Source: an uncultured Holophagales bacterium (GTDB lineage: Bacteria > Acidobacteriota > Thermoanaerobaculia > Multivoradales > UBA5704). Taken from it: a stretch of 64,000 nt of DNA. Position 1 is the first letter of the stretch. Each line of letters opens with the position of its first letter. The DNA is taken from NCBI GenBank assembly GCA_963842525.1, contig CAWJGT010000009.1:1-64000 (forward strand), given 5' to 3'. Shown here piece by piece: positions 348 to 31,907 of this stretch. A program made the position numbers and the translations under genes. Under the pieces are notes generated by a model that was not told where the DNA came from, made no database searches, and saw only the letters and a list, made by a program, of their open reading frames with translations.

Positions 348-662
348 TCATGCGGTGGCTCCTGCGGCGGCGGCTACGGCGGATTCGAAGGCCTCGGCTT
401 CGGCGAGGCGCTGCTCCCAGGTGGCTCGCCGTTCGGTCCAGCTTCCTCGACGACTTCGAGGTAGAAGGGTTCGGCAGATCTGGTTGGGCGGGTACTGGAT
501 CAGGGCGCAATGCATGGTCTCGGCACCGGCGAGAATGCCGAGCTGGCCCTGGTAATGCGGGCACCAGTCCTTCGCGCAGAAGTAGAGGATGTCGGAGCCT
601 TCGACCTGGCGGGCTTCGGCCACGGCTTCGCCTCGGCGGAGGGAGAGGTGCACGAGGTTCAT
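348..662 (-). CDS. Hypothetical protein (104 aa, Cys-containing) in the cro-like operon
   Basis: ATGA overlap with the stop of the cro-like gene; protein-like composition. Confidence 0.6.
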   Translation of the reverse strand: MNLVHLSLRRGEAVAEARQVEGSDILYFCAKDWCPHYQGQLGILAGAETMHCALIQYPPNQICRTLLPRSRRGSWTERRATWEQRLAEAEAFESAVAAAAGATA

Positions 663-913
663 GGGTGGCCGCTCTCCTGGCTGGCTCTATCGATCCCGAG
701 AGCGAGATGCGCGGGAATGCCCGTGATCGAGACGATCTGCCCCAGGAACTTCCATGACGGGCGGGACGCCTTTTCCCAGCAGCTCACGGTGGAGTGCCGG
801 ACCTCGGGAGCGAGGAGCTTGCCGAGATCGCCCTGGCTGAGACCCCGATTGCGGCGCCAGCGCCGCAACAGCTCACCAAAGGATGCTTGTGTGCAGAGGC
901 AATCGATTGTCAT
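659..913 (-). CDS. Cro-like XRE-family HTH regulator
   Basis: FGELLRRWRRNRGLSQGDLGKLL...STVSCWEKASRP HTH_3 pattern; ATG at 913 lies 7 nt after a -10 box. Confidence 0.8.
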   Translation of the reverse strand: MTIDCLCTQASFGELLRRWRRNRGLSQGDLGKLLAPEVRHSTVSCWEKASRPSWKFLGQIVSITGIPAHLALGIDRASQESGHP

Positions 914-920
914 GCAGAGC

Positions 921-950
921 ACTGTATGCACCATATAGCAACAGTGTCAA
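921..950 (-). promoter_or_regulatory. Sigma70-type promoter for the cro-like gene (leaderless)
   Basis: TTGACA (950-945), 18 nt, TACAGT (926-921), then 7 nt to ATG 913. Confidence 0.65.
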
Positions 951-983: not shown

Positions 984-1012
984 TTGCTTTTGCGCTCTGC
1001 AACATCTAGAAT
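984..1012 (+). promoter_or_regulatory. Sigma70-type promoter for the cI-like gene (leaderless)
   Basis: TTGCTT (984-989), 17 nt, TAGAAT (1007-1012), then 7 nt to ATG 1020. Confidence 0.65.
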
Positions 1013-1019
1013 GTCTTCC

Positions 1020-1394
1020 ATGGATGCGACCGACCCTTTCGAAGGTCTTGGAAAAGCACTCGCCCAGCTTCGTGCACGAGCGGGGTTTGCGACGCAAACG
1101 GAGGTGTCCGACGCTCTGGGCTTCGACAAGGGGCAACTGTCACGCTGGGAGAACGACAAGCCCCGCCCGACTCTCGAGAACCTCGGGCGTCTGCTCGTGG
1201 GCTACGGGGCTACGGTGCAGGACCTTGCGACCGCTCTGGGTGGCATTGCGGAAGCCAAGGTGGAGCGAAGCCCTTCCGACGAGGAGCTGATCAGGTCGCT
1301 GACGGAGGCGATCCGCCGCGTGGAGGGGCGTCAGAGCGAGACGGAGAGCCGGCTCGAACGGCTGGAGCAGGACCTGGGACGCAGCACGGCGTAG
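1020..1394 (+). CDS. CI-like XRE repressor with C-terminal coiled coil (no S24 peptidase domain)
   Basis: LGKALAQLRARAGFATQTEVSDALGFDKGQLSRWENDKPRPTLENL HTH; divergent from the cro-like gene. Confidence 0.85.
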   Translation: MDATDPFEGLGKALAQLRARAGFATQTEVSDALGFDKGQLSRWENDKPRPTLENLGRLLVGYGATVQDLATALGGIAEAKVERSPSDEELIRSLTEAIRRVEGRQSETESRLERLEQDLGRSTA

Positions 1395-1499
1395 GCCGCA
1401 CGCCCTGGCCTCCGCTCCGATCTTCCAGCCGTCCGCCGCCGGGAGAGGGGGGACGCGCGGAACCTTCCCCGACTGGCCCCCTGTCCCGTGCGAGCGCCG

Positions 1500-2308
1500 C
1501 TCCCCACGCCGAACGGGAGAGGGGGGACGGTTGCCTGGGCCTCCGTGGCGAGGGCTCGGGGGATCGCGAATCGGTAGGGAAATTTGTAGAGGCTCGTTCG
1601 CAGGCAAGCCGGGCGGCGATGAACCGCCAGCAGGTTGCGCCATAGACGGGCTCGCACCCAGGCGCACCTGGCGGCCAGACGCGCGGAGGCGAGGCGGCGA
1701 TAGAAGGGCTCCAAGACTTCCAGGGCCGCTGCTGCCGCCGAGAGCCGGCCGGCCTGAATGAGCGCTCTGAAGAGGCTATGACCGGTTGAAGCCACGACAT
1801 CGAGAGGTGCATCGCCCAGGAGGCCGAGGGCGGTTTGAAAGGCGCAAAGCGCCCGCTCTGGCTCACCGGAGTCCAGATAGGTGAGGCCAAGGAGATGCAT
1901 AGACCGGGCTTCGCCAGTGGAGTCGCCGAGCAACTTCTGGTCGGCGATGGCAGAGGTCAGCAGGTGCACTGCACTTTCGTACCTGCCTGTATCGCGGTGG
2001 AGGTTGGCCGTCACCTCGAGCAGAGCGACCTTGGTTGCCGTGTCGGAGGTCGGCAGCTCGGCTGCCCGATTCAGCGCTTGCTGCGCAACCTCGTAGCGGC
2101 CGGCGATTCGGTGCGCATTCCCGAATTGCGTCCATGCGGCGATGACGAGGTCATTCGGGAGCTCGGCGATCTTCTCTTCAGCGAGAGCAACGGCTGCGCT
2201 CGACAGCCTGAGCATGGTCGGCAGGTCGCGATTGCGGCTTGTGCGTGCGGAATCCACCAACTTCCGCAGTCTTTCAGCGGGTGTAAGCCGCTTGCGTCGC
2301 AGAGGCAT
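1500..2308 (-). CDS. TPR-repeat protein (3' end frameshifted near 1630; true end uncertain)
   Basis: TPR-like helices such as AWTQFGNAHRIAGRYEVAQQALNRA and SMHLLGLTYLDSGEPERALCAFQTA. Confidence 0.7.
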
Positions 2309-2476: not shown

Positions 2477-3976
2477 TCATGTGGTGGCCCTGCCGCGCGC
2501 CTTGGAGAGCTGGTCCTGGAGCCGCCGGACCAGCCCGGCGGTGACCTGCTCCTTCTCCGCCGCTTCCTGGAAGAGAAGCACCGCGGCCAGGGCTTCCCGG
2601 TCCACCTTCTGGGCCTTGAAGATCTCCACCATCTGGGCGGCCAGGAGCTTGATGTCCGCGAAACGGCCGACCTCGCGGTAGAGCAGCGCCAGGTCCAGGC
2701 TCGCCAGTGCGTAGTCGAAGGGATTCTCCCGGACCTCGAACTCGTGCCGCACCTGCTCCAGCTTGAGCAGAGCCTCGTCCCTCTGCCCCAGGCCTGCAGC
2801 GCAGTTTCCTTCCAGCCACAGGGTCCTCACAAGATCCTCGCTATTGCGGAGTCGCTCGACAAGCTCCCGAACCTCGGCCACGATCGGTGCCGCCTCCCCG
2901 GCCCGGCCCAGCAAGAGCAGGTTCGACGCCTGGTTGAACCGGAGGACGCAACGCAGCCGCGGCTGGCGCGCGGCGTCGATGGCCTGCGCCGCCTGGGCCA
3001 GGGTTCGAAGCGCCTCTTCGTGGTCGCCTTTTACCTGAAAGATACAGGCTTTGTTCAGCAGGATGCCGCCACGTTCCTCAGGGCGCGCTTTCTTCAGTGC
3101 CTCGTTGTGAAGGCGGAGGGCCGCGTTGAACTGCCGCAGATCGTTGCGCAGCGAAGCCTCCAGATGGAGCATGTGCGCTTCGGAGAAAAGGCCCGCCGGG
3201 TCCTGCCCTTCGTGCCAGAGGCGCCAGGCGCGGGCGAAGGTCGCCAAAGCGCCGGGGAAGTCGCGGCCGATCACTCGTTCAGCGTTCGCAATGTGTGCGG
3301 TGCACCAGCCCTGGAGGCGGGGCTTGACGACGCTCTCTTCGACGTGCGCGGCGATCAAGAGAGCCAGCTCCGCCAACGCAAGGGCTTCCTTTGCGGCGTG
3401 TGGCGCCATGTGCTCACTCACCTTGCAGATGTGCAGGCAGAGCAGCGGGTCGCAGTATGACGGCGCACGCCGGATGAGGAGGCGCTGCTTGTCCGGTGGA
3501 GCGGCCTTCAGCCTCTCGAAGAGAGCCTCGACCCGTTGCTGGTCCTCCTCCGCAGGAGGGCCGAGCCGGCGCGGCGCGCTCCGCAACAGCGCCTCCTCCG
3601 CCCGGCCCAGGGCCAGCGCCCTCTCCACGATGTCCACGACGGCCGCCCGGGACGCTTCAGTCAGGGCCGGTGTGGCGGGCGGTTCGAGCACCTCGTCCAG
3701 GGCGAGCGCCCCGCGGACCAGCCGGTGGCACCAGCGGAGAAAGCCGATGAGCCGCTGGGGGACGCCGACCGCCTCCCGGATCAACTGGAAGGTCGCCTCC
3801 CTCGGCCGCGTCTTCCCCTTCTCATAGCGGCGAAGATCGCTGCGGTCGATTCCGGCCTTGGTGGCGAGGCGGACCTGCGACCACTCTCCTGGCAGCCAAC
3901 GAAGGAAGGAGATGAAGTCACCAAAAAGCGCCGGCTCGCCAAGCTGCTTCTCCTGATCGCCTCTGTCCTGTGGCAT
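2477..3976 (-). CDS. HTH-XRE + TPR regulator, copy 1 (RRNPP-like architecture, about 499 aa)
   Basis: N-terminal WSQVRLATKAGIDRSDLRRYEKGKTRP HTH followed by multiple TPR helices; likely start MPQDRG at 3976. Confidence 0.85.
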   Translation of the reverse strand: MPQDRGDQEKQLGEPALFGDFISFLRWLPGEWSQVRLATKAGIDRSDLRRYEKGKTRPREATFQLIREAVGVPQRLIGFLRWCHRLVRGALALDEVLEPPATPALTEASRAAVVDIVERALALGRAEEALLRSAPRRLGPPAEEDQQRVEALFERLKAAPPDKQRLLIRRAPSYCDPLLCLHICKVSEHMAPHAAKEALALAELALLIAAHVEESVVKPRLQGWCTAHIANAERVIGRDFPGALATFARAWRLWHEGQDPAGLFSEAHMLHLEASLRNDLRQFNAALRLHNEALKKARPEERGGILLNKACIFQVKGDHEEALRTLAQAAQAIDAARQPRLRCVLRFNQASNLLLLGRAGEAAPIVAEVRELVERLRNSEDLVRTLWLEGNCAAGLGQRDEALLKLEQVRHEFEVRENPFDYALASLDLALLYREVGRFADIKLLAAQMVEIFKAQKVDREALAAVLLFQEAAEKEQVTAGLVRRLQDQLSKARGRATT

Positions 3977-3981
3977 AGATC

Positions 3982-3997
3982 CCCTCACCGGTGAGGG
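3982..3997. promoter_or_regulatory. Perfect 16-bp palindrome CCCTCACCGGTGAGGG (candidate operator)
   Basis: Lies in the divergent gap between HTH-TPR copy 1 and the peptide gene. Confidence 0.4.
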
Positions 3998-4102
3998 CGG
4001 AAGTTGGATATATTCGCCTGGTCCGGGCACCATGGAGAGGCCGGAGGCGCCACCGCGGCCATGGCGGCCGTGCAGAAGGCCGCCTCCTCCACAGGAGCCG
4101 GT

Positions 4103-4408
4103 ATGGCCCATCGACGACTTGCCCGTATCCTCCTCGTCTTCCTGATGATCACCCTGTTGTGCGCACCCGCCTGGGCAGCGCCAGGGCCCGCCCCCGAGGC
4201 GCGGCTGTTCGACGTCCTCGCACGCCTCTGGGGCACCCTCACGGCCGCCTGGGCGGAGCATGGCTGCGGGCTCGACCCCTACGGCGCCTGCACGGATCAT
4301 GGCTGTGGGATCGATCCCAATGGCCCTTGCGAGCCAGTTGCGCCACATTCTACGGTGGACCATGGCTGCATGCTCGACCCAAATGGCATCTGCGTGCCCG
4401 GAAGCTAA
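4103..4408 (+). CDS. Secreted precursor peptide (101 aa) with three (D/E)HGCxxDPxGxC repeats
   Basis: GGAG RBS before ATG 4103; signal peptide MAHRRLARILLVFLMITLLCAPAWA; cores EHGCGLDPYGAC, DHGCGIDPNGPC, DHGCMLDPNGIC. Confidence 0.85.
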   Translation: MAHRRLARILLVFLMITLLCAPAWAAPGPAPEARLFDVLARLWGTLTAAWAEHGCGLDPYGACTDHGCGIDPNGPCEPVAPHSTVDHGCMLDPNGICVPGS

Positions 4409-4458
4409 CAGCGACCTGCTTGCCGGGAGGGGCTCGCCATGACCCCTCCCCTTTCCAC

Positions 4459-5923
4459 TCAGCCCTCGAAGCGAAGCTGAAGATTGCTCCTCGCCCTGGA
4501 GAGGTAGCCCTGGAGGCGCCGGACCAGCCCCCCAGTGACCTGCTCCTTCTCAGCAGCTTCTTGGAAAAGGATCACCGCGGCGAGGGCCTCGCGGTGCACC
4601 TTCTGGGCCTTGAAGATTTCCAGGATCTCGCCCGCCAGCACCTTGATTTCCGCAAAGCGCCCTTCCTCGCGATAGCAGAGCGCCATGTCCAGGCTCGCCA
4701 GGGCATAGTCGAAGGGGTTTTCACGTGCTGCGAATTCGCGCCGCACCTGCTCCAGTCTGGTGAGCGCTTCCTCCCTCTGGCCCAAGCCGGCGGCGCAGTT
4801 TCCTTCCAGCCATAGAGGCTCTCAGAAGATCCTCGCTGTTGCGCAGCCGCTCGGCCAGCAGGCGTACTTCGGCAATGATCGGAGCGGCCTCCCGGGCCCG
4901 GCCCAGCAGGAGCAGGTTCGCGGCCTCGTTGAAACGCACTACACAGAGCAGCCGCGGCTGGCGCTCGGCATCGATGGCCTGCGCCGCCTGTGCGAGGATC
5001 TGAAGCGCCTCTTCGTGCTCGCCAGCCACCTGAAGGATACAGGCTTTGTTCAACAGGATGGCACCGCGCTCGTCCGGGCGCGCTTTCTTCAGCGCCTCGT
5101 TGTGAAGGCGGAGGGCCTCGTCAACTTGCCGCAGATCGTTGCGCAGCGAGGCCTCCAAATGGAGCAGGTGTGCTTCGGAGAGCAGGCCCGCCGTGTCCTC
5201 GCCTTCGTGCCAGAGGCTCCAGACGCGAGCAAAGGCCGTGGCAGCGCCGGGAAGATCGCGGCCGATGACTCGGTGAGCGTTCGCGACGTGCCCGGTACAC
5301 CAGCCCTGGAGGCAGGGCTTGAAGACGCTGTCGTCCACGTGATCGGCGACGAAGAGGGCCAGCTCGGCCAGCGCCAGGGCCTGGCGGGGATCGCGCGGTG
5401 CCGCGGCCTCGCTTTCGGTGCAGAGGACCACGGCCAATCCCCAGTGCTGATACGCCGGATCGCTTTCGACCAGGTACCGCTGGTCTGCGGGTGCATCGCT
5501 CAGAAGCTCGCGCGCGAGCCTCCTTCCTTCTTCACGGGCCGCCCGGGCGTTTTCCTGCCTGATCTCCTGGAGGCGGAGGTCCAGGACCAAGTCACCCATC
5601 TCGCAGGCCGCCTGGGCCGCGGTTTTCTCGGCCCTGCGGCGCTGCTCGGGTGTGGGGTCCACCGGCGAGCTGGCAGAAGGTGGGTCCGGCTTTACCAGCC
5701 GGGCGGCGAGGACGGCGCGCTCGACCTCTTCCGGGCCCAGCTCCATGAGCGCTGCGAGCTCCTCCAGGCGCTCCCGGCTCAAGCCAGCGTTGACAAAAGC
5801 GGAAATCGTGGCGGGGGCCACACCCGCAGCGTCCGCAAGCCGCGCTCCGGTCCAGCCGTGTGCTCCCAGGAGGAGCTCCAGGGCGAAGCCTAGCTGCGAA
5901 GGGTTTCCGCGCAAATTCTCCAA
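4459..5923 (-). CDS. HTH + TPR regulator, copy 2 (paralog of 2477-3976; 1-nt frameshift near 4815)
   Basis: WTGARLADAAGVAPATISAF HTH; near-identical segments to copy 1 (LQGWCT.H.ANA.RVIGRD, ENPFDYALASLD); ORFs 4721-5923 and 4459-4785 join after removing one base. Confidence 0.85.
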
Positions 5924-6117
5924 CTCTCTCCTCCCAAGGATTCTCCTCCATAAGAGTAGGTTGCCGCAGGCGGCTTTTTAGGGACAAAGGGAAAAGACAT
6001 TTTAGTCGGGACCCCAGGGGTGGGGTGTTTGCGAAATTCGTTGCCAAAAGCGGGCATGAACGGGTTTAGCCTCGCCCTGCCGCGGGAGGGGCGCGGCAGG
6101 ACAGGAGGATGTTTGGC

Positions 6118-6306
6118 ATGGCGTCAACACACCCGGAGAGAGCGGTGCTGCAGCGATTCGCCCGGGGCGAAGCGGCGAGGACAGAGGCCAAGCAAGTGGT
6201 AGCTCACATGCTGCGGCGACGGTGCGAGAGTTGCGCAGCGACGATCCGGCAAGAGGCGTTACTGGTGATCGAGGACTCGGACCTGCTCGGGAGCGCTCGC
6301 AAATGA
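6118..6306 (+). CDS. Small zf-HC2/anti-sigma-like zinc-finger protein
   Basis: HPERAVLQRFARGE...VVAHMLRRRCESC (H...CxxC); GGAGG RBS upstream. Confidence 0.6.
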   Translation: MASTHPERAVLQRFARGEAARTEAKQVVAHMLRRRCESCAATIRQEALLVIEDSDLLGSARK

Positions 6307-7175
6307 ACCAGACAGTGATGCGCGCCAAACCGACGAGAGGCCCAGGGGGCCGTGAGGCGGACACGGACGGGCACGGACTGACACGGACGGGGCACGGATG
6401 GGGCCGGCGCCGCCGGCTGCCCGCGGACGTAGCGAAGAGGCTCGCTGGGGCTGGCGTCACTGTGGCCGAAGTGGAGCGGCTCACCCGCGAACAGGTGCTC
6501 GAACTTCCTGGGATCGGCGAGCTCACCGGCAAGCGGCTCGAACGGTACCTGGGGCGGCCATTTGAATCGCACGCGCCGTATTGGATTGAGCGTGGCCTAT
6601 CGGCGCGGCTTTCCCACAAGCTGGCTGTGGCTGGAATACGCAGCGAGGAGCAGCTCCGGCGCCTACGGCGCGCGGACCTTCTGAAAATCAAAGGCCTTGG
6701 CACCAAACAGGTGGAGCACCTCCTGCATTTCGGCAGACCTGCGCCGGCGCGCCAGCGGCCTCTTAGGTTTCTGGACAAGGTGCCGCAAGCACGGCTATGG
6801 GTCGAAGCGGGGATTACGCCGGGCTGTGCGCGGAGGCTTGTCGCAGCAGGAATCACAAGCATTGCGCACCTGAAGAGGCCGACAAGAGACGACCTTTTAG
6901 CAATTCACGGGATCAGCGAAGCGACGGTGGAAAAGTGTGAAAAGGTTCTTGGCCGCCCTTTTGCCGAGTCGGTCGCGGCGTGCTGGCGAGCGCGGGGCCT
7001 GCCCACGCATCTTGCCAACGTTCTGCAGCGATCAGGAATCAGCTCGCTGGAGCAATTGGCGGCGATGTCACGGGAGGACTTACTCGGCTTGAATGGAATC
7101 GGCCCAACAGGGCTCGCCGCTTGCGAGAGATTGCTCGGGCAACCACTTCGCTCCGACCCCAAAGGGAGAAGATGA
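6303..7175 (+). CDS. Protein of four tandem RNAP alpha-CTD-like/HhH repeats
   Basis: Four units resembling GLS.R....L...GI.S..QL......DLL.I.GLG. Confidence 0.75.
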   Translation: MNQTVMRAKPTRGPGGREADTDGHGLTRTGHGWGRRRRLPADVAKRLAGAGVTVAEVERLTREQVLELPGIGELTGKRLERYLGRPFESHAPYWIERGLSARLSHKLAVAGIRSEEQLRRLRRADLLKIKGLGTKQVEHLLHFGRPAPARQRPLRFLDKVPQARLWVEAGITPGCARRLVAAGITSIAHLKRPTRDDLLAIHGISEATVEKCEKVLGRPFAESVAACWRARGLPTHLANVLQRSGISSLEQLAAMSREDLLGLNGIGPTGLAACERLLGQPLRSDPKGRR

Positions 7176-8819: not shown

Positions 8820-9152
8820 TCAGCAGCAGGTGATGCCGGGGGTGCAGGCTCCTCCGGGACCGCAGTCCGCGTTCGTCTTACAGGGTTGGCCGCAACTGCA
8901 GCGGCAGGTGCGGAACCCGACCGTGAGCTCCGGCGCGGGGTTCTGAGGCAACTCCGCAGGGCAGACCACCGGCTGCTCAAGCATCGCGGCGAGGTCCAGT
9001 GTTTCTCCGCAACCAGGCTGGTCAGGAGAGGAAGCTGCGTCCGGCGCGGCGGTGGGAACCACAGGCTTCTCGGCGAAGGCCGGTGCGGCGCTCAGAGCAG
9101 CCACGAAGAGCACGGCGATCAGGGCGAGACCGAACATCTTGGATCGGCGCAT
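8820..9152 (-). CDS. Secreted Cys-rich peptide (110 aa; C-terminal 8-Cys domain)
   Basis: AGGAGG RBS; signal peptide MRRSKMFGLALIAVLFVAALSAAPAFA; core RTCRCSCGQPCKTNADCGPGGACTPGITCC. Confidence 0.8.
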   Translation of the reverse strand: MRRSKMFGLALIAVLFVAALSAAPAFAEKPVVPTAAPDAASSPDQPGCGETLDLAAMLEQPVVCPAELPQNPAPELTVGFRTCRCSCGQPCKTNADCGPGGACTPGITCC

Positions 9153-9385
9153 GGCATCCTCCTTGGTATGTAGAACGACCGTATAGTCGGCCAGCGGGCC
9201 AGCCGGTGGGCGACCAAGACTCGACAGCCCGTTCAAGGGCTCCACTTTTGTAGGTGCTCCAGAGCGTCGGAGCAGTGACAGCGGATAACCGGGGCGCGTG
9301 CCCGGGACAGTGCGCCGGAGGCGGTGTCCCCCTGGAACACGCCTTCCACACCATGCTTCATGAGACTGCAAGAAGGAGGTCTGGA

Positions 9386-24056: not shown

Positions 24057-24983
24057 TCAGTCCGGGTCGATCCGGACTGCGCACTGGGGGAAGCCCGGCT
24101 CGACGCCGTACTCCCCATCCATTCCGAAGCTGATCTGGGCGTGGGAAAACGACTTGGTCGTGTCGAACTCGATGCCGTTGGGCTCGCGCGTCGGCATCCA
24201 GAGAACAGGACGGGGGCCGGTCGGCAGCGAGAGGATGAAGTCCACTTTGTTTTCGGTGCCGGGGGCAGGGTTGTAGTCCAGCCAGAGGCTGAACTTTTCC
24301 TTCCAGGTGTTGGGATCGGCTCCGAAGCTCGGCTCGGTGCGGAGCAGCTCGTAGGCTTGGAAAACGTCGGTTGAGCGCGTAATCACGATCAGGTTTTGGC
24401 GGACCTGATCGGCGGAGGCGAGGGCGTCTCCCCAGAGCCGGATGGACATGAGCTGAAGGAGGGCCTTCGTGATCTCGGAACGCGCTTCCATCACGTCCGG
24501 CTTCGCGGGAGTCTGGCGGATGACGGAGACCAGATTGGAGTAACTGCGGCCGTCGGGGTGGGCGTGATCGGTATCGAAGAAGTTCTGGCCGTCGTAGGCG
24601 AGGCGGTTGTGGCGCAGGACTTTGACCGCGAGCATGACCTTGCCCGCGACAAAGCCTTCGGCGATGGCGGCGGACTTCTGCTGGACCGTGGCGAGGGCGG
24701 TGCCCCTCTCGATGTCGTTGCGATCAACGGCGTCAGTGATTTCGTATTTCTCTCCGACGATCGTGATCGGCGTTGCGAAGGAACGCTGGACGATCCTCTC
24801 GCCCACCCATTTGTGGAGCTGCGTAAAAAGGGTGGTCCATTCGATCGTGAGGCTCTTGGCCTTGGTCGGGTTGGGCACGGTCGCGGTGAGCTGCGGCAAT
24901 AAGGCGTTGGCCGCAGACCGGTCGTAGAGGTCGAGGGCGTAGGGCGTGACAACGCGGGCGATGCTTTGAAGCTCGCTGAGCAT
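24057..24983 (-). CDS. Mu gpT-like major capsid protein
   Basis: KWVGER...KYEITDAVDRNDIE and AYDGQNFFDTDH signature motifs. Confidence 0.9.
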   Translation of the reverse strand: MLSELQSIARVVTPYALDLYDRSAANALLPQLTATVPNPTKAKSLTIEWTTLFTQLHKWVGERIVQRSFATPITIVGEKYEITDAVDRNDIERGTALATVQQKSAAIAEGFVAGKVMLAVKVLRHNRLAYDGQNFFDTDHAHPDGRSYSNLVSVIRQTPAKPDVMEARSEITKALLQLMSIRLWGDALASADQVRQNLIVITRSTDVFQAYELLRTEPSFGADPNTWKEKFSLWLDYNPAPGTENKVDFILSLPTGPRPVLWMPTREPNGIEFDTTKSFSHAQISFGMDGEYGVEPGFPQCAVRIDPD

Positions 24984-24986
24984 GGC

Positions 24987-25463: not shown

Positions 25464-26429
25464 TCAGTTGGCTCGGAAGCCGAAGCCGGTGGTGGTGAAC
25501 TGATATTTGGCGTCGAGCTCTCGACGTCGCTCGGCGGAAAGGCCGAGGGCGGTGGTGGCCTGGTGCTCCTGGTCGGCCAGGCGGCCGGCGGTCATCGCTT
25601 CGACGGCCGGGACGGCGGCGAGGATCTCGAGGAGCCGGTCGGCGATCGCGATGTCGGCCGGAGGCTTGGCGGGGTCGTCCTGCAGCTTCACGGTGGCGGG
25701 GGTGCGGGTGGCGAGCAGCTCGATGAGGAGGGGCTTCGCGAGCTTCGCCATGGCGGGGGTGAGACAGGCGCCGAGGGCTTTGAGGCGGCTGTCGGCTTCC
25801 AGCTCGGCTTTCTGCCTCAGGATGATGGCGACGGCTTGGTCGCTTTCGGCGACTCGCTGTTGCAGGGCGGCGGTCAGCTCGACCTCGCCGAGGGCTGGCG
25901 GCGCCGGAGGATCACTTTCGGGCATGGGAGTCTCCTTTCTGGGCGTGAGCACGTACTGCGGGCGGCAGAGGGTTACCGGAGGGAGGCCGGTGACTGCGGG
26001 TCTTGCGTTGCCGAGGAGAGCGCAGCCGGTGAAGTACCAGCCGCCGGTGACCGGATGGCCGAGGGCGATCTCGGCGGAGCGCCGGGTGTAGCGCTTGGTG
26101 CGGATCAGCTCGACGGTGGCCGGGTCGAGGTCGGTGTAGCGAACCCAGAGGGCTTCGTCCTGGAGCCAGATGCGCTCGCACCAGCCGAGCGACGGGCCGG
26201 CGGTGCTGTGGTCGAGGTTGAGGCTTGCCATCTCGACGGCGGGGTCGTAAGCGGCTGCCATTTCGGCGAGGCGCTCGCTCGTGATCTCGATGCCGTGGGT
26301 CTCGGTGAGATCGATCGGGACGAGGGCTGGGAACTCCAGGGCTGGGGTTTCGCTGGCGGCTGCGAGATCGATCAGGTTTTCGGTGGCAGGCGTCCAGAGG
26401 ACGGCGCCGGTGATGATGCGCGGGGTCAT
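25464..26429 (-). CDS. Mu-like prohead protease/scaffold
   Basis: NLDHS...GWCERI...KRYTRRSAEI...GCALLGNARPAVTGL. Confidence 0.85.
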   Translation of the reverse strand: MTPRIITGAVLWTPATENLIDLAAASETPALEFPALVPIDLTETHGIEITSERLAEMAAAYDPAVEMASLNLDHSTAGPSLGWCERIWLQDEALWVRYTDLDPATVELIRTKRYTRRSAEIALGHPVTGGWYFTGCALLGNARPAVTGLPPVTLCRPQYVLTPRKETPMPESDPPAPPALGEVELTAALQQRVAESDQAVAIILRQKAELEADSRLKALGACLTPAMAKLAKPLLIELLATRTPATVKLQDDPAKPPADIAIADRLLEILAAVPAVEAMTAGRLADQEHQATTALGLSAERRRELDAKYQFTTTGFGFRAN

Positions 26430-28111
26430 GGGATGACTCCTTGGCCTTGAAAGCCGGGATCGGGTAGGGCGGGGAGGCCGGTGTCGGGTGCGATGGGCCA
26501 GGGACCGGTGGGCTCGGGGCCGGTGTAGCCTCGGGCTTCGGCTTCTTCGGCAGTGATGACTTCGATACGACAGCGGCAGCTATGGCCGGCGGGGGGCCAC
26601 CAAGTCTTCCAGATCGGGTGATCGATCGCGAAGACTTTGCCGTGCATGACGGCGTGGTTGTGAAGGGGGCGTTGGCGGACGCGGTCGTCGTCTTCGGTCA
26701 ACCAGATCAGGTAGGGGATCTGGTGGGCCAGACCGGATGGCAGGGACGACAAGGACTGCAAGGACACCAAGGACTGCAAGGACGATAAGGACAAGGACGG
26801 AGAGGAAGGAGAAACGGCGGGCTGGCGTTTGACCACGGGCTCGCCTTCTGTGGGGGCGGGGACCCTCATGGTCATGCGGTAGTAGCCTTCGGGGACGGAG
26901 ACGTCATCCGCGAGGGCGTGGGCGATGCCCTGCATGCGCTGGGCTCGGTCGGGCGCGTCGGTGCTGTCGTAGACGGACCTGGGGATGGGGGCGCTGGGTC
27001 CGAAGTTGAGGAGGACCATCCAGCGGATGAGCGTGTCGGTTTCGAAGGAGCCGAGCAGGTGGGCATCGTGATCGACGGTCTCCAGGCGGACTTCGTTGGA
27101 AACCTGACTCTTTGCAAAGGAGCCCGGGCCTTTGGCGAGGCCGCTGGTGTCCACTTCGCCGAGGAGGAGGAGGGCTTCGGCTCGGTCGAGCCAGGAGAGG
27201 AAGGCGGCGTAGCTGGCGTCTCCTCCTCGGCTGGCTTCGAGGAAGGTGATGTCGAGGCCATCGGGGAGGGCGATCGAGGTGCCGGTCCGGATCGCGTCCA
27301 GGATCGCGAGGAGGCGGGCCTGCTGCTCTTTGTTGGCGGCCTCCTGGCCGGGCTTGTACGGGTAGGTCCCTTTCGCGAGCGGCTGCGCGAAGCGCTCGAC
27401 GAAGAGGGCCCAATACTTCGAGGCGTGCTTCTTCAGGTACCAGACCCAATAGAGACGATCGAGGAGGGCTCGGCCCCACGGGTTGTCCTTGGTCCCGTAG
27501 GACAGAACTTGGAACTTCATCGGCGGGGCGGGGACCGGCGCGATCCGCACCGGGTGATTGACGATATGAAGGGATCTGTCGCTCGCGGCCCAGCCGAAGC
27601 GCCACATGGGGCGATCGATCAGATCGACGGGGAGCCAGGCGCCGGCCAGTGGGCCGCGAGATGCCTGCTCCCACATGACCTCGTTGATGGCGACACCCTT
27701 GAGGATCGCTTCGAGGGTGTTGGAGATTGGGACGACGCGGAGCGGGATCTGTGAGAGCGCGGTGCGAACGAAGAGTGCGGTCTCTTCGGCCTTCGGAGAA
27801 GAATCAGCGGCTCGGATGAAGCGCGGCAGGGAGAGGACTGCTTTGACTCTCTTTTCCCAGAGGCCGGCCATGGTCGTATCGGTTTCGACCATGCGGCTGT
27901 AAAGCTCCCCCACCCGGTCGCCCACCTCGGACCTCTCTCGGACGAAGCGCGAGGGATGCTGGATCTCCTGCCATCTTCCGAACGCGCGGAAGAACATGGG
28001 ATCGCCGCCGAGCTCGCCGACGAACGGACGGAGCTTGCGCTCCGCCTCAAGGGCGGTGACGACCAGCTCCGCGAAGAGCTGCTCGGTTGGGGCGAGGTGG
28101 GCGGTCTCCAT
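26426..28111 (-). CDS. DUF935 (Mu gp29) portal fused to the C-terminal MuF/gp7 domain
   Basis: DNPWGRALL...YWVWYLKK...WALFVERFAQP portal motifs; C-terminal DDDRVR...H...HGKVFAIDHPIWKTWWPPAGHSCRC MuF motif. Confidence 0.9.
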   Translation of the reverse strand: METAHLAPTEQLFAELVVTALEAERKLRPFVGELGGDPMFFRAFGRWQEIQHPSRFVRERSEVGDRVGELYSRMVETDTTMAGLWEKRVKAVLSLPRFIRAADSSPKAEETALFVRTALSQIPLRVVPISNTLEAILKGVAINEVMWEQASRGPLAGAWLPVDLIDRPMWRFGWAASDRSLHIVNHPVRIAPVPAPPMKFQVLSYGTKDNPWGRALLDRLYWVWYLKKHASKYWALFVERFAQPLAKGTYPYKPGQEAANKEQQARLLAILDAIRTGTSIALPDGLDITFLEASRGGDASYAAFLSWLDRAEALLLLGEVDTSGLAKGPGSFAKSQVSNEVRLETVDHDAHLLGSFETDTLIRWMVLLNFGPSAPIPRSVYDSTDAPDRAQRMQGIAHALADDVSVPEGYYRMTMRVPAPTEGEPVVKRQPAVSPSSPSLSLSSLQSLVSLQSLSSLPSGLAHQIPYLIWLTEDDDRVRQRPLHNHAVMHGKVFAIDHPIWKTWWPPAGHSCRCRIEVITAEEAEARGYTGPEPTGPWPIAPDTGLPALPDPGFQGQGVIP

Positions 28112-28113
28112 GA

Positions 28114-30150
28114 TCAGAGGGCCTTCAGGATGTCGAGAGAATCGATCGGGTTTGCGGCGGGGGTGGCGTAGATGAGGGGCGGAGTGAAGGCTCCCCAATC
28201 GGCGGTGAGCTTGCGTAGCTCGGCGACTCGCAGAGCATCGACGAGGTGGTCGTTGACCTTCGAAAAGCGGCGCGATTCGCCGGATTGCGAATAGGTATGG
28301 TTTGCGAGGAGGTGGCGGACCTCGGGGTCGAAGGGCAGCTCGAGGCCTCGGCCGTGGAGGCGGCGCTCGATCAATTGGGTTCCCAGCTCTTTGTAGGAGA
28401 TGAGGATCTCTCGACCGGTGGCCGGATCGAGCTGGGCTTCGCCGGTCGTGGGATCAAGGGCGGGCGTCGCGCGATTGAAGACGTAGCCGGAGAGGCGCTC
28501 TCCCAGCTCGGGAGCCAGGAGATCGACCAGGACTCGGCCAACTCCGGTGGCGTCGATCCCCCAGCCGCCGGCCGGGGCGAGGATGGCGTCGAGAGCGAGG
28601 ATGAAATCTCGCTGCGCGTACCAGTTCCAGCCGGTGAGGTGGAGGCGGAGGACAACGGTGTCGGCCAGGCCGTTGCGGCGCTCGATGAGGATCTCCGTGA
28701 CGGTGGCCGAGCCGACATCGACTCCGGCGGTGAGGTCTCCGGGGATGGGGCGGAGGAAGAAGCTGGCAAGGTCGTTGGTGAATTTGCGGCGGTGGTCGGC
28801 GTCCCAACGATCCCAGCCGGTTACGTCGAGGGTGTCCTGCAGGACTGTGAGATAGGGCTGCAGGGCGGCTTCTCCCTCGAGGTCCTCGTCGGAGTGGTCG
28901 TCGGCCGGCTCGCGGCCGGGGGCGGGCTGCGGGCGGTGCTCACGAACTCGCCAAGGCTCAGACAGTTGCGCTCCGTCCTCGCTCCGCCCCCTGGCCGCTG
29001 GGCCTGCGCTGAGGGCTTCCTCGCCCCAGGGATAGGAGGGGTTGAGGCGGCGGGAGAGGGCGTCGAGGTGCCCGGCTCGGGTGTCCCAGCGGAAGGTGAG
29101 GGAAAGATAGTCGGGGATCCAGGTCAGCGCGGGCTGGAGGAGGCGCTCGGGGAAAAGTGAGTACTCGGGATCGCCGGGGAGACCGAGGACGTTGTGTACG
29201 TAGCCCGGCTCATCCGGGCCGCCATAGAAAGCTATGAACTCCTGGCGGCGGTCTTCGCTCCAGAAGGGGGCGGGCATGATGGTCTTCGGCCAGTGGAAGC
29301 GGACCCAGATGCGGCCTCCGAGGTCGCGAGCCAGGGCGCGCGTGCCTTCCGGGACCGTCGCAGAGGTGGGACGGAGGAGCTGCTCGATGACCAGCTTGGG
29401 CGTGTCGGCGGGGACAACGGATTCGGCGGGGACCGCGTTGTCGGCGATCCTCTGGAAAGTGCAGAGGCGGTCGCCAGTAGGAACCGAGTAGATCCGGATC
29501 TCGCAGCCGGGCTTGGCGGCGCGCCAGAACTCGGCCCAGCTTCTCGGGTTGACGACTTTGGCCGCTTCGTCGTGCAGGAGCCAGCCGCGCACGTGGATGC
29601 CTCGGTAGGCGCGGCCGTCGTGGCCGGCGGGGCGGAAGAGGACGCGCAAGCCGTTGCGCCAGGTCAGGCGGCGGTAGGGCTTCGTGGTGCGCGTCCGCAG
29701 GGAGTCGTTGAGGAAGGGGTTGGCAGTGAGCTGCCACTCGACTTCCTCCCAGATCTCGTCGAGGTCACCGTCCAGGGCGGAGCCGACCAGCACACTTCCC
29801 CGCTCCGCCGCGAGGCAGCCCCACAGGAGCAGGCCGACGATCTCGCGGCTCTTCCCCACCTCGGCGCCGTCCTGGTGGACGACATGGCCACGGAAGCGCA
29901 TCGACGGTCGCTGATAGGCGAAGAGGCTCCAGAGGCCGCCGCCGTCCTCGGGCTTGTTGACGAGGTTGGTTTCGACCCAGAGGACCGGGTCGGCGTTGAT
30001 CAGCCACCACTGGAGGCGGTCGATGTCGAGGACCTCGTCGCCGAGCTTGAGGTCACCGCGTTCGAGGGCTTGCCAGGACCAGCGGTTGCGGCGCAGGAGC
30101 GCGTCGATCAGCTCGGGCAGCGCGGGATGGAGCAGCTCGATGCTATGCAT
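28114..30150 (-). CDS. terL: Terminase large subunit
   Basis: Walker A-like GAEVGKS, LLHDEAA Walker B, YSVPTG, nuclease GVDVG, GIDATGVG, NDHLVDALR. Confidence 0.9.
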   Translation of the reverse strand: MHSIELLHPALPELIDALLRRNRWSWQALERGDLKLGDEVLDIDRLQWWLINADPVLWVETNLVNKPEDGGGLWSLFAYQRPSMRFRGHVVHQDGAEVGKSREIVGLLLWGCLAAERGSVLVGSALDGDLDEIWEEVEWQLTANPFLNDSLRTRTTKPYRRLTWRNGLRVLFRPAGHDGRAYRGIHVRGWLLHDEAAKVVNPRSWAEFWRAAKPGCEIRIYSVPTGDRLCTFQRIADNAVPAESVVPADTPKLVIEQLLRPTSATVPEGTRALARDLGGRIWVRFHWPKTIMPAPFWSEDRRQEFIAFYGGPDEPGYVHNVLGLPGDPEYSLFPERLLQPALTWIPDYLSLTFRWDTRAGHLDALSRRLNPSYPWGEEALSAGPAARGRSEDGAQLSEPWRVREHRPQPAPGREPADDHSDEDLEGEAALQPYLTVLQDTLDVTGWDRWDADHRRKFTNDLASFFLRPIPGDLTAGVDVGSATVTEILIERRNGLADTVVLRLHLTGWNWYAQRDFILALDAILAPAGGWGIDATGVGRVLVDLLAPELGERLSGYVFNRATPALDPTTGEAQLDPATGREILISYKELGTQLIERRLHGRGLELPFDPEVRHLLANHTYSQSGESRRFSKVNDHLVDALRVAELRKLTADWGAFTPPLIYATPAANPIDSLDILKAL

Positions 30151-30799
30151 CGGAGTCCTCCCCCTCCCCCGCCAGACCTCTCCGCATCTGGCTCACCCAG
30201 GCGGCCCTTCCCGCCAGGCCGAGTCCGTGGTCTCTTTCGCGCTCCCCGCTCGCCTTGGGTGTGATCGCCTGGTCGGTGGCGGTGTGGCCGAGCTGCCGCA
30301 GGAGCTGGAAAGTGTTTGCCGCCCGAGGGTTTTCGACGGGGCGCTCGGCGACGATCTCGAGCTCGCCTTCGGCGTTGCGGCCGACGACAGGGACTTGGAC
30401 GACGAGGCCTTCCTGCATGAGGACGGCGAGCTCGCCATGGGCAAGCGCGAGCTGGCCTGCCATCGAAGTCGCGGCGAGCTCGGCCAAGCCGTTGAGGTCG
30501 CCGGCCTGGATGGCGGCGAGGTACTTCTCCATCACGTCGTGATGGCCGAGGGAAACGAGGCAGGCCGAAAGGCCGGCGCCGCGCGACTCGACGGCACGCT
30601 TGACGTCGCAGGTGCCGGTGCCGCCGTTCGGACAGACGGCGGGCTTGCAGGGCGGGAGCGCCTGGCCGAGGGCGGTCGTAGCGTACTGGCCGGTCTTCAC
30701 CGCGGCGGCACGGCGCTGGGCGCGCTCTTTGGCGGACAGGGGCTTGCCCTTGGGCCGGCCGCCCTTTCCTTTACTCCCCTGCTGTGTCCGTTTCGGCAT
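30143..30799 (-). CDS. terS: Terminase small subunit candidate
   Basis: Basic GGRPKG N-terminus, AVKTGQYA (HGxY-like), VENPRA...LRQLGHTA; directly upstream of terL. Confidence 0.7.
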   Translation of the reverse strand: MPKRTQQGSKGKGGRPKGKPLSAKERAQRRAAAVKTGQYATTALGQALPPCKPAVCPNGGTGTCDVKRAVESRGAGLSACLVSLGHHDVMEKYLAAIQAGDLNGLAELAATSMAGQLALAHGELAVLMQEGLVVQVPVVGRNAEGELEIVAERPVENPRAANTFQLLRQLGHTATDQAITPKASGERERDHGLGLAGRAAWVSQMRRGLAGEGEDSDA

Positions 30800-30836
30800 C
30801 TTGACAGCGCTCCTCGTTCGTGGGCAGCTTGAGGAC

Positions 30837-31907
30837 ATGAGCGCAAGACCCCAAATCGGCCCAGCTCGTCGTGCCCCTGCTAAGTCGAGGTTTTCCAGTG
30901 AGATACCGCGCAAAAAAGAGCCGCTCCAAGGACCAGATAATCTGGTCCTTGTGGAGGAATGGACGGCGTTCCTGGTGAGCGTCCGGGGGCGGACGGAGGG
31001 GACGGCGGCCAGGTATCGGCGGCTCGTCGAGCGGCTGCTCGCGGACTCCGGGAAGCCTCTCGTGCAGCTCGGCCGGGAGGACGTCGAAAAGCATCTGCGG
31101 CGGCTGCATCTGGCCGGGCGCGGGGAGTCGGTGCGGCAGGGGGTGGTGGTGGCGATCCGCTCGCTGGGCGAGTGGTGCCTGGCTCACGGCATCCTCGACG
31201 TGAACCCCTGGGCGTCGCTGTCGGGGCCACGGCCCTACCGGCGGGAGATCAAGGTGCTCACGGTCGCCGAGGTGTCTCGGCTGCTCTGGGGCGATCGGCC
31301 GGGGACTCTGCCGCGCGATCCGCTACAGATGCGCGACCGGGTGCTGCTGGGCGTGGCCTACGTGGCGGGGCTGCGGGCGTCGGAGACCGGGCCGCTGGAG
31401 GCGGAGGGGGTGGTCTGGCAGGAGGCGACTCAGACCTTCAGCATTCTGGTGCGACGTGGGAAGGGGGCAGGCTCGGATGTGCGGTTGCCTCTGGACCGGC
31501 CGGTGTCTCGGATGCTCGCGGTCTGGTTGACGACCCGGCCGGCGGGGCGGTTTCTCTGGGGACGGGCGCTGACGCGGGGAGCGGTGCGGAAGATTTTGCT
31601 TCGACGGTTCGCGGAGGTGGGGATCGAGGCGGGTGGGCGGCGGATTTCGCCTCACGTGCTACGGCACAGCCTGGCGACGCATCTGCTTGCTCAAGGGCTG
31701 GATATCCGGGAGGTGCAGCTTCTGATGCGCCACCGGTCGATCGCGACGACGGAGAAGTATCTGCATGTGAATGTGGATCGGCTGGGGGCGGTGTTGGTAC
31801 GGCGGAGTCCTTTGGAGGGACGGGGGCGGAAGAGAATGGCGAGCTCGCTGCGGCCGGCGATGGCGCAGCTCCTTGGCGAGCTTGGGGGGTTGGTGCGGGG
31901 GGAGTGA
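30837..31907 (+). CDS. XerC/D-like tyrosine recombinase
   Basis: GLRASE (R), RRGKG (K), SPHVLRHSLATHLL (HxxR), MRHRSIATTEKY (H, Y). Confidence 0.92.
   Translation: MSARPQIGPARRAPAKSRFSSEIPRKKEPLQGPDNLVLVEEWTAFLVSVRGRTEGTAARYRRLVERLLADSGKPLVQLGREDVEKHLRRLHLAGRGESVRQGVVVAIRSLGEWCLAHGILDVNPWASLSGPRPYRREIKVLTVAEVSRLLWGDRPGTLPRDPLQMRDRVLLGVAYVAGLRASETGPLEAEGVVWQEATQTFSILVRRGKGAGSDVRLPLDRPVSRMLAVWLTTRPAGRFLWGRALTRGAVRKILLRRFAEVGIEAGGRRISPHVLRHSLATHLLAQGLDIREVQLLMRHRSIATTEKYLHVNVDRLGAVLVRRSPLEGRGRKRMASSLRPAMAQLLGELGGLVRGE

Follow-up and report, generated by a model that had tools for sequence, protein, structure and literature searches.

A secreted peptide gene between two HTH-TPR regulators

The window analysed here comprises 64,000 nucleotides of an uncultured Holophagales bacterium (assembly GCA_963842525.1, positions 1 to 64,000 of contig CAWJGT010000009.1, here called C9). 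Its positions 2477-5923 hold a cassette encoding a small secreted peptide and two regulators that combine a helix-turn-helix (HTH) with a tetratricopeptide repeat (TPR) domain. The original prediction had placed a 101-aa precursor with signal peptide and three cores between two paralogous HTH-TPR copies, and the open reading frames (ORFs) together with their sequences confirmed this arrangement. The peptide precursor gene occupies 4103-4408 on the plus strand. TPR1 (2477-3991, minus strand, 504 aa), the A-type receptor, is divergent from it across a gap at 3992-4102, and TPR2 (4459-5923, minus strand), the B-type receptor, is convergent with it across a gap at 4409-4458. The cassette is best read as a prophage-borne copy of a massively expanded regulator/pro-peptide cassette of the Thermoanaerobaculia.

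The start codon of the peptide gene, an ATG, is preceded at a distance of 5 nt by an AGGAG motif. The precursor begins with a signal peptide, recognised by eye in residues 1-25 (nt 4103-4177) from a basic n-region, a hydrophobic core and the residues AWA before the cut. A conserved amphipathic, Trp-containing helix follows at approximately nt 4199-4255, and the remainder carries the three cores GCGLDPYGAC (nt 4262-4291), GCGIDPNGPC (nt 4301-4330) and GCMLDPNGIC (nt 4364-4393). Pfam, NCBIfam and PHROGs contained no family for the precursor, and in the protein Atlas it matched only 'hypothetical protein' clusters from Acidobacteriota.

Alignment of the upstream regions of the three closest paralogous loci (the window and loci on contigs C14 and C19) revealed a conserved intergenic block at 4003-4072, which includes a near-palindrome at 4051-4072 (inverted repeat of 14 nt, 86% complementary) and is a candidate for a shared promoter/operator. 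Repeat searches of 3940-4130 and 5880-6260 returned no direct repeats and only short GC-rich near-palindromes. A promoter scan placed two promoter-like sites on the minus strand, at 950-921 and 2372-2343, and a terminator scan found none after the peptide gene.

TPR1 matched the Pfam families HTH_3 (E 9.3e-7) and TPR_12 (E 3e-4), and by eye it has no signal peptide or membrane segment. Its 523 homologues are annotated only as XRE-HTH or TPR proteins, those with a named source coming from Thermoanaerobaculia/Acidobacteriota metagenome bins. An AlphaFold2 model computed with 57 homologues (predicted local distance difference test score 87) places an HTH domain at about residues 19-75, a partly disordered linker behind it and a TPR superhelix of about 18 helices at residues 148-501. 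The original prediction had named PlcR, AimR and NprR as structures to look for with Foldseek. When the model was compared with the PDB, the TPR domains of eukaryotic LGN/Pins ranked first (E 4e-6, TM 0.47/0.60, identity 13-14%). Complexes of Rap and PlcR were indeed among the matches with E ≤ 1e-3, namely RapJ-CSF (rank 8, E 1.8e-5), phage phi3T Rap with pheromones, RapF-PhrF, RapI and PlcR-PapR (rank 42); AimR was absent from the matches listed at this threshold. A TPR1 profile run against the PDB sequences retrieved XRE/HipB HTH domains at 1e-6, RapH at 8e-4 and PlcR at 0.013. Together, the Rap, PlcR and LGN matches suggest that TPR1 adopts the fold of a peptide-binding TPR receptor.

A search of TPR1 for an Asn ladder or carboxylate clamp identified N313 and N353 as invariant in the 57 close homologues, though not across 53 paralogues, in which only L209, A210, N236, R239, S280, A291, P344, A367, W392, G402 and A407 are conserved at 85% or more. 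Co-folding of TPR1 residues 140-504 with the mature precursor (residues 26-101) gave a score of 0.01, which, obtained without controls, weighs neither way.

TPR2 resembles TPR1 with 70.6% identity over TPR1 residues 159-389 and 80.7% over residues 391-499, and the N-terminal parts of the two proteins are unalignable. The predicted second paralogue was recovered as an HTH-TPR gene convergent with the peptide gene (Pfam HTH_3 8.5e-4, weaker than for TPR1), but not as an intact ORF. Its reading frame shifts by one base near position 4819, so that the gene is read in two frames, 4721-5923 and 4459-4785, and the break is common to the near-identical copy on contig C18. Either a pseudogene or an assembly indel would account for it. 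An intact B-type orthologue of TPR2 is encoded at C14:51891-53348. Many other TPR genes of the genome are likewise split in two overlapping frames (C1:43.3-45.0 kb, C5:32.9-34.4 kb, C19:68.9-70.4 kb, C9:1446.7-1448.3 kb), reflecting either frequent pseudogenes in the family or assembly indels.

The C18 copy concerns the assembly. Read on the opposite strand, C18:1-7001 matches C9:1-7002 (99.66% identity, 11 mismatches, 11 gaps), and such an alignment marks the duplicate as a contig-end overlap, the region being present twice in the assembly. Since the window starts at a contig end that overlaps C18, the latter extends the map leftward, and since the two copies differ by gaps, at least one of them has indel errors. 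An apparent similar contig-end duplicate was seen between C8:1-1557 and C10:~31.4-33.6 kb. Among public sequencing runs, window DNA occurs in three DNA runs (X1-X3, shares 0.05-0.12), and no RNA run is listed. Logan contigs of run X1 are short and identical to the window. In run X2, a contig from a relative about 92% alike spans 3425-4185 and 4293-6398 and has 71 different letters in place of 107 in the peptide pro-region. None of the read-contig indels among the rows listed covers 4819.

A cassette family of the Thermoanaerobaculia

A six-frame pattern search of the 9.95-Mb genome returned 45 GC..DP.G.C cores at about 22 places. With a profile built from 22 precursors, 54 peptide ORFs were found (E ≤ 1e-3), or 52 without two contig-end duplicates on C18 and C8. 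The consensus of the family reads [DE]-x-G-C-x-[ILV]-D-P-x-G-x-C; in the alignment P59 is invariant, and C55, D58 and G61 are present in at least 90% of the sequences. Common to the wider family are a signal peptide, the Trp helix and x-G-x-x-[IL]-D-P-[NDHS]-G units in repeated copies. Cys is absent from many members, which terminate exactly at DPNG or DPDG, so the disulfide bracket is a sub-family trait. Of the HGCxxDPxGxC motif that had been proposed for the peptide, the three GCxxDPxGxC cores hold, whereas the His is restricted to the clade formed by the window, C14 and C19 loci and many family members lack any Cys.

Linkage of the peptide genes to TPR regulators is far above chance. We located 95 TPR-family loci in the genome as tblastn matches to TPR1, TPR2 or TPR3 (a third TPR gene, described below). 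Of the 54 peptide ORFs, 47 lie within 1 kb of such a locus (45 of 52 without the contig-end duplicates). Random placement, repeated 2000 times, put an average of 1.5 within this distance and never more than 7. In other genomes, a peptide gene abuts a TPR homologue in all 11 loci inspected and has one on both sides in 10 of them. The enrichment beside HTH-TPR genes, on which the original prediction had staked its case, was thus borne out in this genome and elsewhere. Across 41 genomes the numbers of peptide and TPR matches correlate with a Spearman coefficient of 0.96, a value that is descriptive only because the genomes are kin and the TPR counts are limited to the matches listed (at most 37).

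The genome holds about 46 cassettes. To define what else belongs to the unit, all likely-coding ORFs within 6 kb of the 46 loci were clustered, and one recurrent family emerged, the TPR regulators, at 43 of the 46 loci. The next cluster (14 loci) consists of apparent antisense ORFs of TPR genes and the third (6 loci) of small HTH-like proteins, both judged by an example member. Over the same 6-kb surroundings no maturase, protease or transporter family recurs, and this includes the maturase genes typical of ribosomally synthesised and post-translationally modified peptides (RiPPs), i.e., radical SAM, YcaO, lanthionine synthetase and protease/ABC exporter genes. A single gene for a secreted multi-core peptide makes up the unit together with either one or two cytoplasmic transcription factors of the XRE-HTH/TPR type. 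Gene order depends on the sub-family. Where Cys is absent, the peptide gene precedes its regulator and both are read from the same strand. Members of the Cys sub-family mostly form triads, in which the A-type receptor is divergent from and the B-type receptor convergent with the peptide gene, and the window holds exactly such a triad. At C9:424-441 kb, outside the window, at least six TPR-family paralogues stand in tandem, and few peptide genes were detected among them.

The two receptors of a triad are mosaics. In all six loci in which both could be read, the A and B receptors share 68.5-97.6% identity over TPR1-numbered residues 185-395 (72.0% in the window) and 13-24% over the HTH region, residues 18-100. 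Between loci, the identity of the TPR region is mostly 32-48%, the exception being the close clade of the window, C14 and C19. For triads of other genomes, within-locus TPR identity amounts to 51-85% in 6 of 9 cases and to 40-45% in three, against a between-locus median of 37%. A tree of the TPR domains accordingly pairs A and B receptors by locus, and a tree of the N-terminal parts groups them mostly by receptor type, with the pairs at C9:1872k and C31 as exceptions. High within-locus TPR identity next to unrelated HTH regions means that each locus keeps one TPR type on two DNA-binding heads, and selection for a shared, locus-encoded ligand would yield such a pattern. The cassette genes duplicate and diverge together.

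The cores of one precursor also resemble each other. Two to five cores are carried by 140 of 150 family representatives. The first position after G-C, which is the most variable of the core, is common to 53% of core pairs within a precursor and to 9% between precursors, and none of 2000 shuffles matched the within-precursor value. For linker residues within a precursor the identity is 30%. This distribution suggests that the cores behave as specificity-bearing units, with recent tandem duplication accounting for part of the sharing.

With respect to distribution, the peptide profile matches 31 of 41 related genomes, including every one of the 24 in the same family, with 1-50 matches apiece, and 6 of the 16 that belong to other families of the order. 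The searches located the peptide family in no genome outside the window's own order. In a phylum sample of 301 genomes, of which the best 16 candidates per genome were scored, matches occurred only in the window's genome and one other of its family, so that the count of 2 in 301 comes from a search of low sensitivity. Run on 1.84 billion representative proteins, the profile retrieved 2293 clusters at E ≤ 1e-3 and 913 at 1e-10. The peptide/regulator cassette is a large, unannotated, lineage-specific receptor/pro-peptide family of the Thermoanaerobaculia (Acidobacteriota).

The prophage and its switch

The window copy resides in a prophage of approximately 37 kb, extending from about -4.7 kb (on C18) to 32.6 kb and carrying genes for portal, protease, major head protein, tyrosine integrase, DnaB helicase and serine recombinase. 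PHROGs assigned the portal protein to 26429-28453, the head maturation protease to 25467-26579, the major head protein to 24060-24986 and the integrase to 30543-31904. That a phage switch and a third TPR gene adjoin the cluster had been proposed before, and both are present. The switch consists of two XRE-family HTH genes. The one in the 'cI' position (984-1394, plus strand, 136 aa) encodes a protein with a helical C-terminal tail and matches Pfam HTH_31 (3.2e-11), HTH_3 (1.2e-8) and, weakly, Phage_CII, as well as PHROGs repressor families (2.5e-7). The one in the 'cro' position (659-934, minus strand, 91 aa) matches HTH_31 (7.6e-8) and PHROGs transcriptional repressor families (1e-5). As had been stated for the cI-like repressor, an autocleavage domain is lacking; neither XRE protein has an S24 peptidase match in Pfam at E ≤ 0.1, nor does any other protein of the cluster show a peptidase domain. 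A repeat search of 900-1020, which covers the gap between the two genes, found none. The gene at 659-934 heads a leftward operon which continues onto C18 and comprises a 112-aa ORF (351-686), an HTH_36 protein, a DnaB-type helicase (DnaB_C E 2.4e-76), a resolvase-like gene and a split large serine recombinase. The cassette sits between the XRE pair with its replication operon and the prophage structural genes.

TPR3 (1331-2308, minus strand), the third TPR gene, shows TPR matches only (Pfam TPR_12 2.3e-12) and no HTH. Its first ~230 residues are conserved and its last ~90 codons look non-coding; a homologue 55% identical over residues 1-226 is found at C3:381416-382096. Relatives of TPR3 at C14:56436-57702, C1:560162-561264, C3:381416-382396 and C34:233169-234877 are each preceded by their own peptide gene, whose product starts with MTMF and contains one or two cores. 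The 168 nt upstream of TPR3 in the window contain no peptide gene, which has thus seemingly been lost here. TPR3 also gave a weak NCBIfam match to a cyclophane-RiPP TPR protein (E 1.9e-4), far under the cut-off of that family.

The prophage backbone (about -4.7 to 32.6 kb) recurs at C1:553.7-592.4 kb with 83-88% identity, and a remnant is present at C3:376.6-386.5 kb; further prophage remnants were noticed at C27:1-5 kb, C20:132.8-136.5 kb and C8:106.9-110.5 kb. The stretch from the switch to ~13.4 kb differs among the three prophage copies, yet has TPR and peptide genes in all of them. The window has TPR3 and the triad there. In C3, the 55%-identical TPR3 and the peptide that belongs to it are joined by a further regulator and a further peptide, and C1 has two TPR3-like genes, a peptide and further XRE genes. 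The position beside the switch is hence conserved in this prophage family. The module is not phage-specific, being one of about 46 loci, only three of which could be placed in this prophage family.

Several neighbouring features were recorded. Directly downstream of the cassette, in the variable, lower-GC stretch of the prophage, an ORF at 6222-7175 (plus strand, 317 aa) encodes repeated helix-hairpin-helix/RNA-polymerase-alpha-CTD-like units (HHH_5 1.6e-18, RNA_pol_A_CTD 1.3e-12). A small secreted Cys-rich protein is encoded in the variable region at 8820-9371 (minus strand), with a signal-peptide-like start inside the ORF, nine Cys in its C-terminal part and no Pfam or NCBIfam family. Right of the integrase end, 34.4-37.2 kb is a multi-copy repeat region that matches more than 10 contigs at 72-92% identity. 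On C18 beyond ~13.5 kb, ORFs of 1029 and 1644 aa, segments of which match more than 100 places in the genome at 64-73%, look like members of a large multi-module gene family of the nonribosomal peptide synthetase/polyketide synthase type.

Peptide sensing, its rivals and known systems

RRNPP systems consist of a communication pro-peptide and its cognate intracellular receptor encoded by adjacent genes, and PMC10075063 describes them from Gram-positive Firmicutes, their plasmids and phages, with the peptide being secreted, processed and re-internalised. The cassette family has the architecture that defines such systems and lies outside their taxonomic range. We tentatively favour an RRNPP-like receptor/pro-peptide module in a diderm, while rating this reading slightly short of an even chance. 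Under it, the precursor would be exported via its signal peptide and processed to short units of the form x-G-(C)-x-[IL]-D-P-[NDSH]-G-(x-C), each of which would be closed by a disulfide in the window's sub-family. The units would build up outside the cell and, after uptake, be captured by the TPR domains in their concave groove. The two flanking receptors would read them through one locus-specific TPR domain, and their unrelated HTH domains would direct them to different operators. The output of the window copy, placed between the cI-like gene and the remaining prophage genes, may include prophage genes, which is the least supported step of the model. The favoured reading counts on its side that the genome has three SBP_bac_5 (OppA/DppA-type) genes. 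Those at C9:403765-404823 and C1:375359-376348, both outside the window, were observed 2-4 kb from TPR-family genes; no permease genes beside them were evident in the ORF listing, which was inspected without a family-library scan.

A number of observations weigh against this reading. A signal would have to cross the outer membrane of the diderm envelope twice, and the cassettes have neither an exporter nor an importer linked to them. The cytoplasm would reduce a loop closed by a disulfide, and such loops are more usual in stable extracellular effectors. The roughly 46 loci per genome exceed several-fold any RRNPP repertoire known to us, and could indicate a diversifying secreted-effector family. 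The likeness to RRNPP receptors is marginal by sequence, and the best fold matches are to the generic superhelix of eukaryotic LGN/Pins. No peptide gene was detected within 700 nt of 20 of the 53 intact TPR ORFs. Gene conversion between direct repeats 2 kb apart could yield the within-locus TPR identity, and this likeness is weak in 3 of the 9 triads of other genomes. Finally, the window copy has a TPR2 with a broken reading frame and a TPR3 that has neither an HTH nor a peptide partner.

Several of these points suit a dedicated regulator of a secreted effector, in which the HTH-TPR protein would switch the peptide gene on another cue, such as a protein partner or metabolite, its TPR domain never sensing the peptide. 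The looped peptides would act extracellularly, e.g., as bacteriocin-like antimicrobials, kin-recognition or adhesion peptides, or metal/calcium binders. The tight linkage of peptide and TPR genes is equally expected under this explanation, Cys-bracketed loops and multi-copy cores suit stable extracellular products, 54 ORFs per genome and 2293 clusters form a repertoire typical of arms-race effectors, and the lack of a linked importer fits as well. We nevertheless consider it rather unlikely. No immunity, export or maturation gene accompanies the peptides, and the loop is not the conserved feature, since many members are Cys-free and end at DP[ND]G. Moreover, a locus-specific TPR domain on two HTH types is hard to explain if the TPR senses a cue unrelated to the locus, and the maintenance of the variable core residue within precursors suggests specific recognition.

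The presence of the window copy and two others in related prophage copies, beside immunity genes where morons and defence genes often sit, would also be expected of a non-signalling prophage accessory module (superinfection exclusion, defence or toxin-antitoxin-like), the family spreading as mobile-element cargo. Antitoxins often contain XRE HTH domains, and HipB and MqsA were matched weakly. This explanation appears quite improbable to us. PADLOC returned only generic HTH-region matches for the six proteins submitted (HTH_VI, RmrA N-terminus, capH; E 2.5e-5 or weaker), a secreted peptide with a signal peptide is unsuited to a cytoplasmic toxin, and only the 3 of 46 loci mentioned above were placed in this prophage family, a check that covered this family and not other mobile elements. 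The layout of a leader-like helix followed by repeated cores recalls instead a RiPP-like pathway, where the Trp helix would serve as the leader to which the TPR proteins or unlinked enzymes bind, and the cores would become modified natural products; the weak cyclophane-RiPP match of TPR3 points the same way. We regard this as the most improbable of the explanations, because no maturase family recurs around the loci, the partner proteins carry DNA-binding domains and RiPP precursors do not usually have a classical signal peptide such as this one.

Two extensions of the RRNPP-like reading go further. An arbitrium-like role for the window copy, which the original prediction had envisaged, is in our judgement unlikely; of that prediction, the HTH-TPR receptor, the adjacent secreted pro-peptide and the place beside a phage switch stand. 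AimR was not among the listed fold matches, and the precursor carries three 10-residue cores in place of a single C-terminal hexapeptide. It seems just as doubtful that Thermoanaerobaculia, a lineage of soil, run dozens of private peptide channels per cell that consist of HTH-TPR receptors and secreted peptides with DP[ND]G cores, each signal being read by two receptors that join one ligand-binding domain to different promoters, and that temperate phages captured some of these channels beside their immunity switch for an arbitrium-like lysis-lysogeny decision outside the Bacillota.

Cytoplasmic sensing of genetically encoded peptides, as in RRNPP and arbitrium systems, is treated as a trait of Gram-positive Firmicutes and their mobile elements in PMC10075063 and PMC9765709. 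Our literature search found only Gram-positive or phage work on peptide systems of the RRNPP type and nothing on such a system from Acidobacteriota or any other diderm (supplements and subscription journals lay outside the search). If the favoured reading is true, peptide quorum sensing, and possibly phage-phage communication, would extend to a poorly understood diderm phylum that abounds in soil. It would raise the questions of how peptides cross the outer membrane, why one cell has ~46 channels and what role the two-receptor triad plays, and the family would be a rich natural source of orthogonal peptide-receptor pairs. Every searched genome of one taxonomic family contains it, and metagenomes hold thousands of variants. 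Even if the peptides are effectors, they make up a large family of secreted disulfide-loop peptides that lacks annotation and has regulators dedicated to it.

Among known systems, the switch resembles lambdoid cI/Cro in being a divergent pair of small XRE HTH genes, one of which heads the prophage replication operon with the HTH_36 protein and DnaB helicase. It differs in that neither protein carries the S24 domain for RecA-dependent autocleavage; no repeats were found in 900-1020. The TPR superhelix of eight to nine repeats is shared with LGN/Pins, whose inner groove holds an extended peptide; those are eukaryotic scaffold proteins without a DNA-binding domain, and at the low identity given above the similarity denotes a shared generic fold and is no evidence of kinship.

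Like the window copy, arbitrium (AimR-AimP-AimX) of Bacillus phages pairs an HTH-TPR receptor with a secreted pro-peptide inside the genome of a temperate phage. Peptides differ from one arbitrium phage to another, and the related prophage copies described here similarly carry different receptor/peptide versions at one place. In contrast to AimP, which releases a single C-terminal hexapeptide, the window precursor is a multi-core, Cys-looped peptide with three 10-residue cores. Further differences are that no AimX-like output gene was identified, that AimR is missing from the listed fold matches and that most family members lie outside this prophage family.

The comparison with RRNPP systems (PlcR-PapR, NprR-NprX, Rap-Phr, Rgg-SHP, PrgX) has two sides. 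The cassette differs from them in its host, a member of the diderm phylum Acidobacteriota, in an unrelated peptide family whose pro-region contains a conserved Trp helix and whose DP[ND]G cores often stand within a disulfide bracket, in the Cys sub-family triad, whose two receptors combine one TPR type with two HTH types, and in the number of about 46 loci per genome. Sequence similarity of RRNPP receptors to TPR1 is marginal, as noted for RapH and PlcR, and Rap and PlcR stand among many generic TPR fold matches. In common with RRNPP systems, TPR-type receptor and small secreted pro-peptide genes are adjacent, the receptor bears an N-terminal HTH (as in all RRNPP receptors except Rap), no maturase accompanies them and a genome harbours many paralogous cassettes. 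Pro-peptides holding several peptides are likewise on record for RRNPPA systems in PMC9765709, and copies on phages and mobile elements, such as the one in the window, are a further feature shared with RRNPP systems as PMC10075063 describes them.

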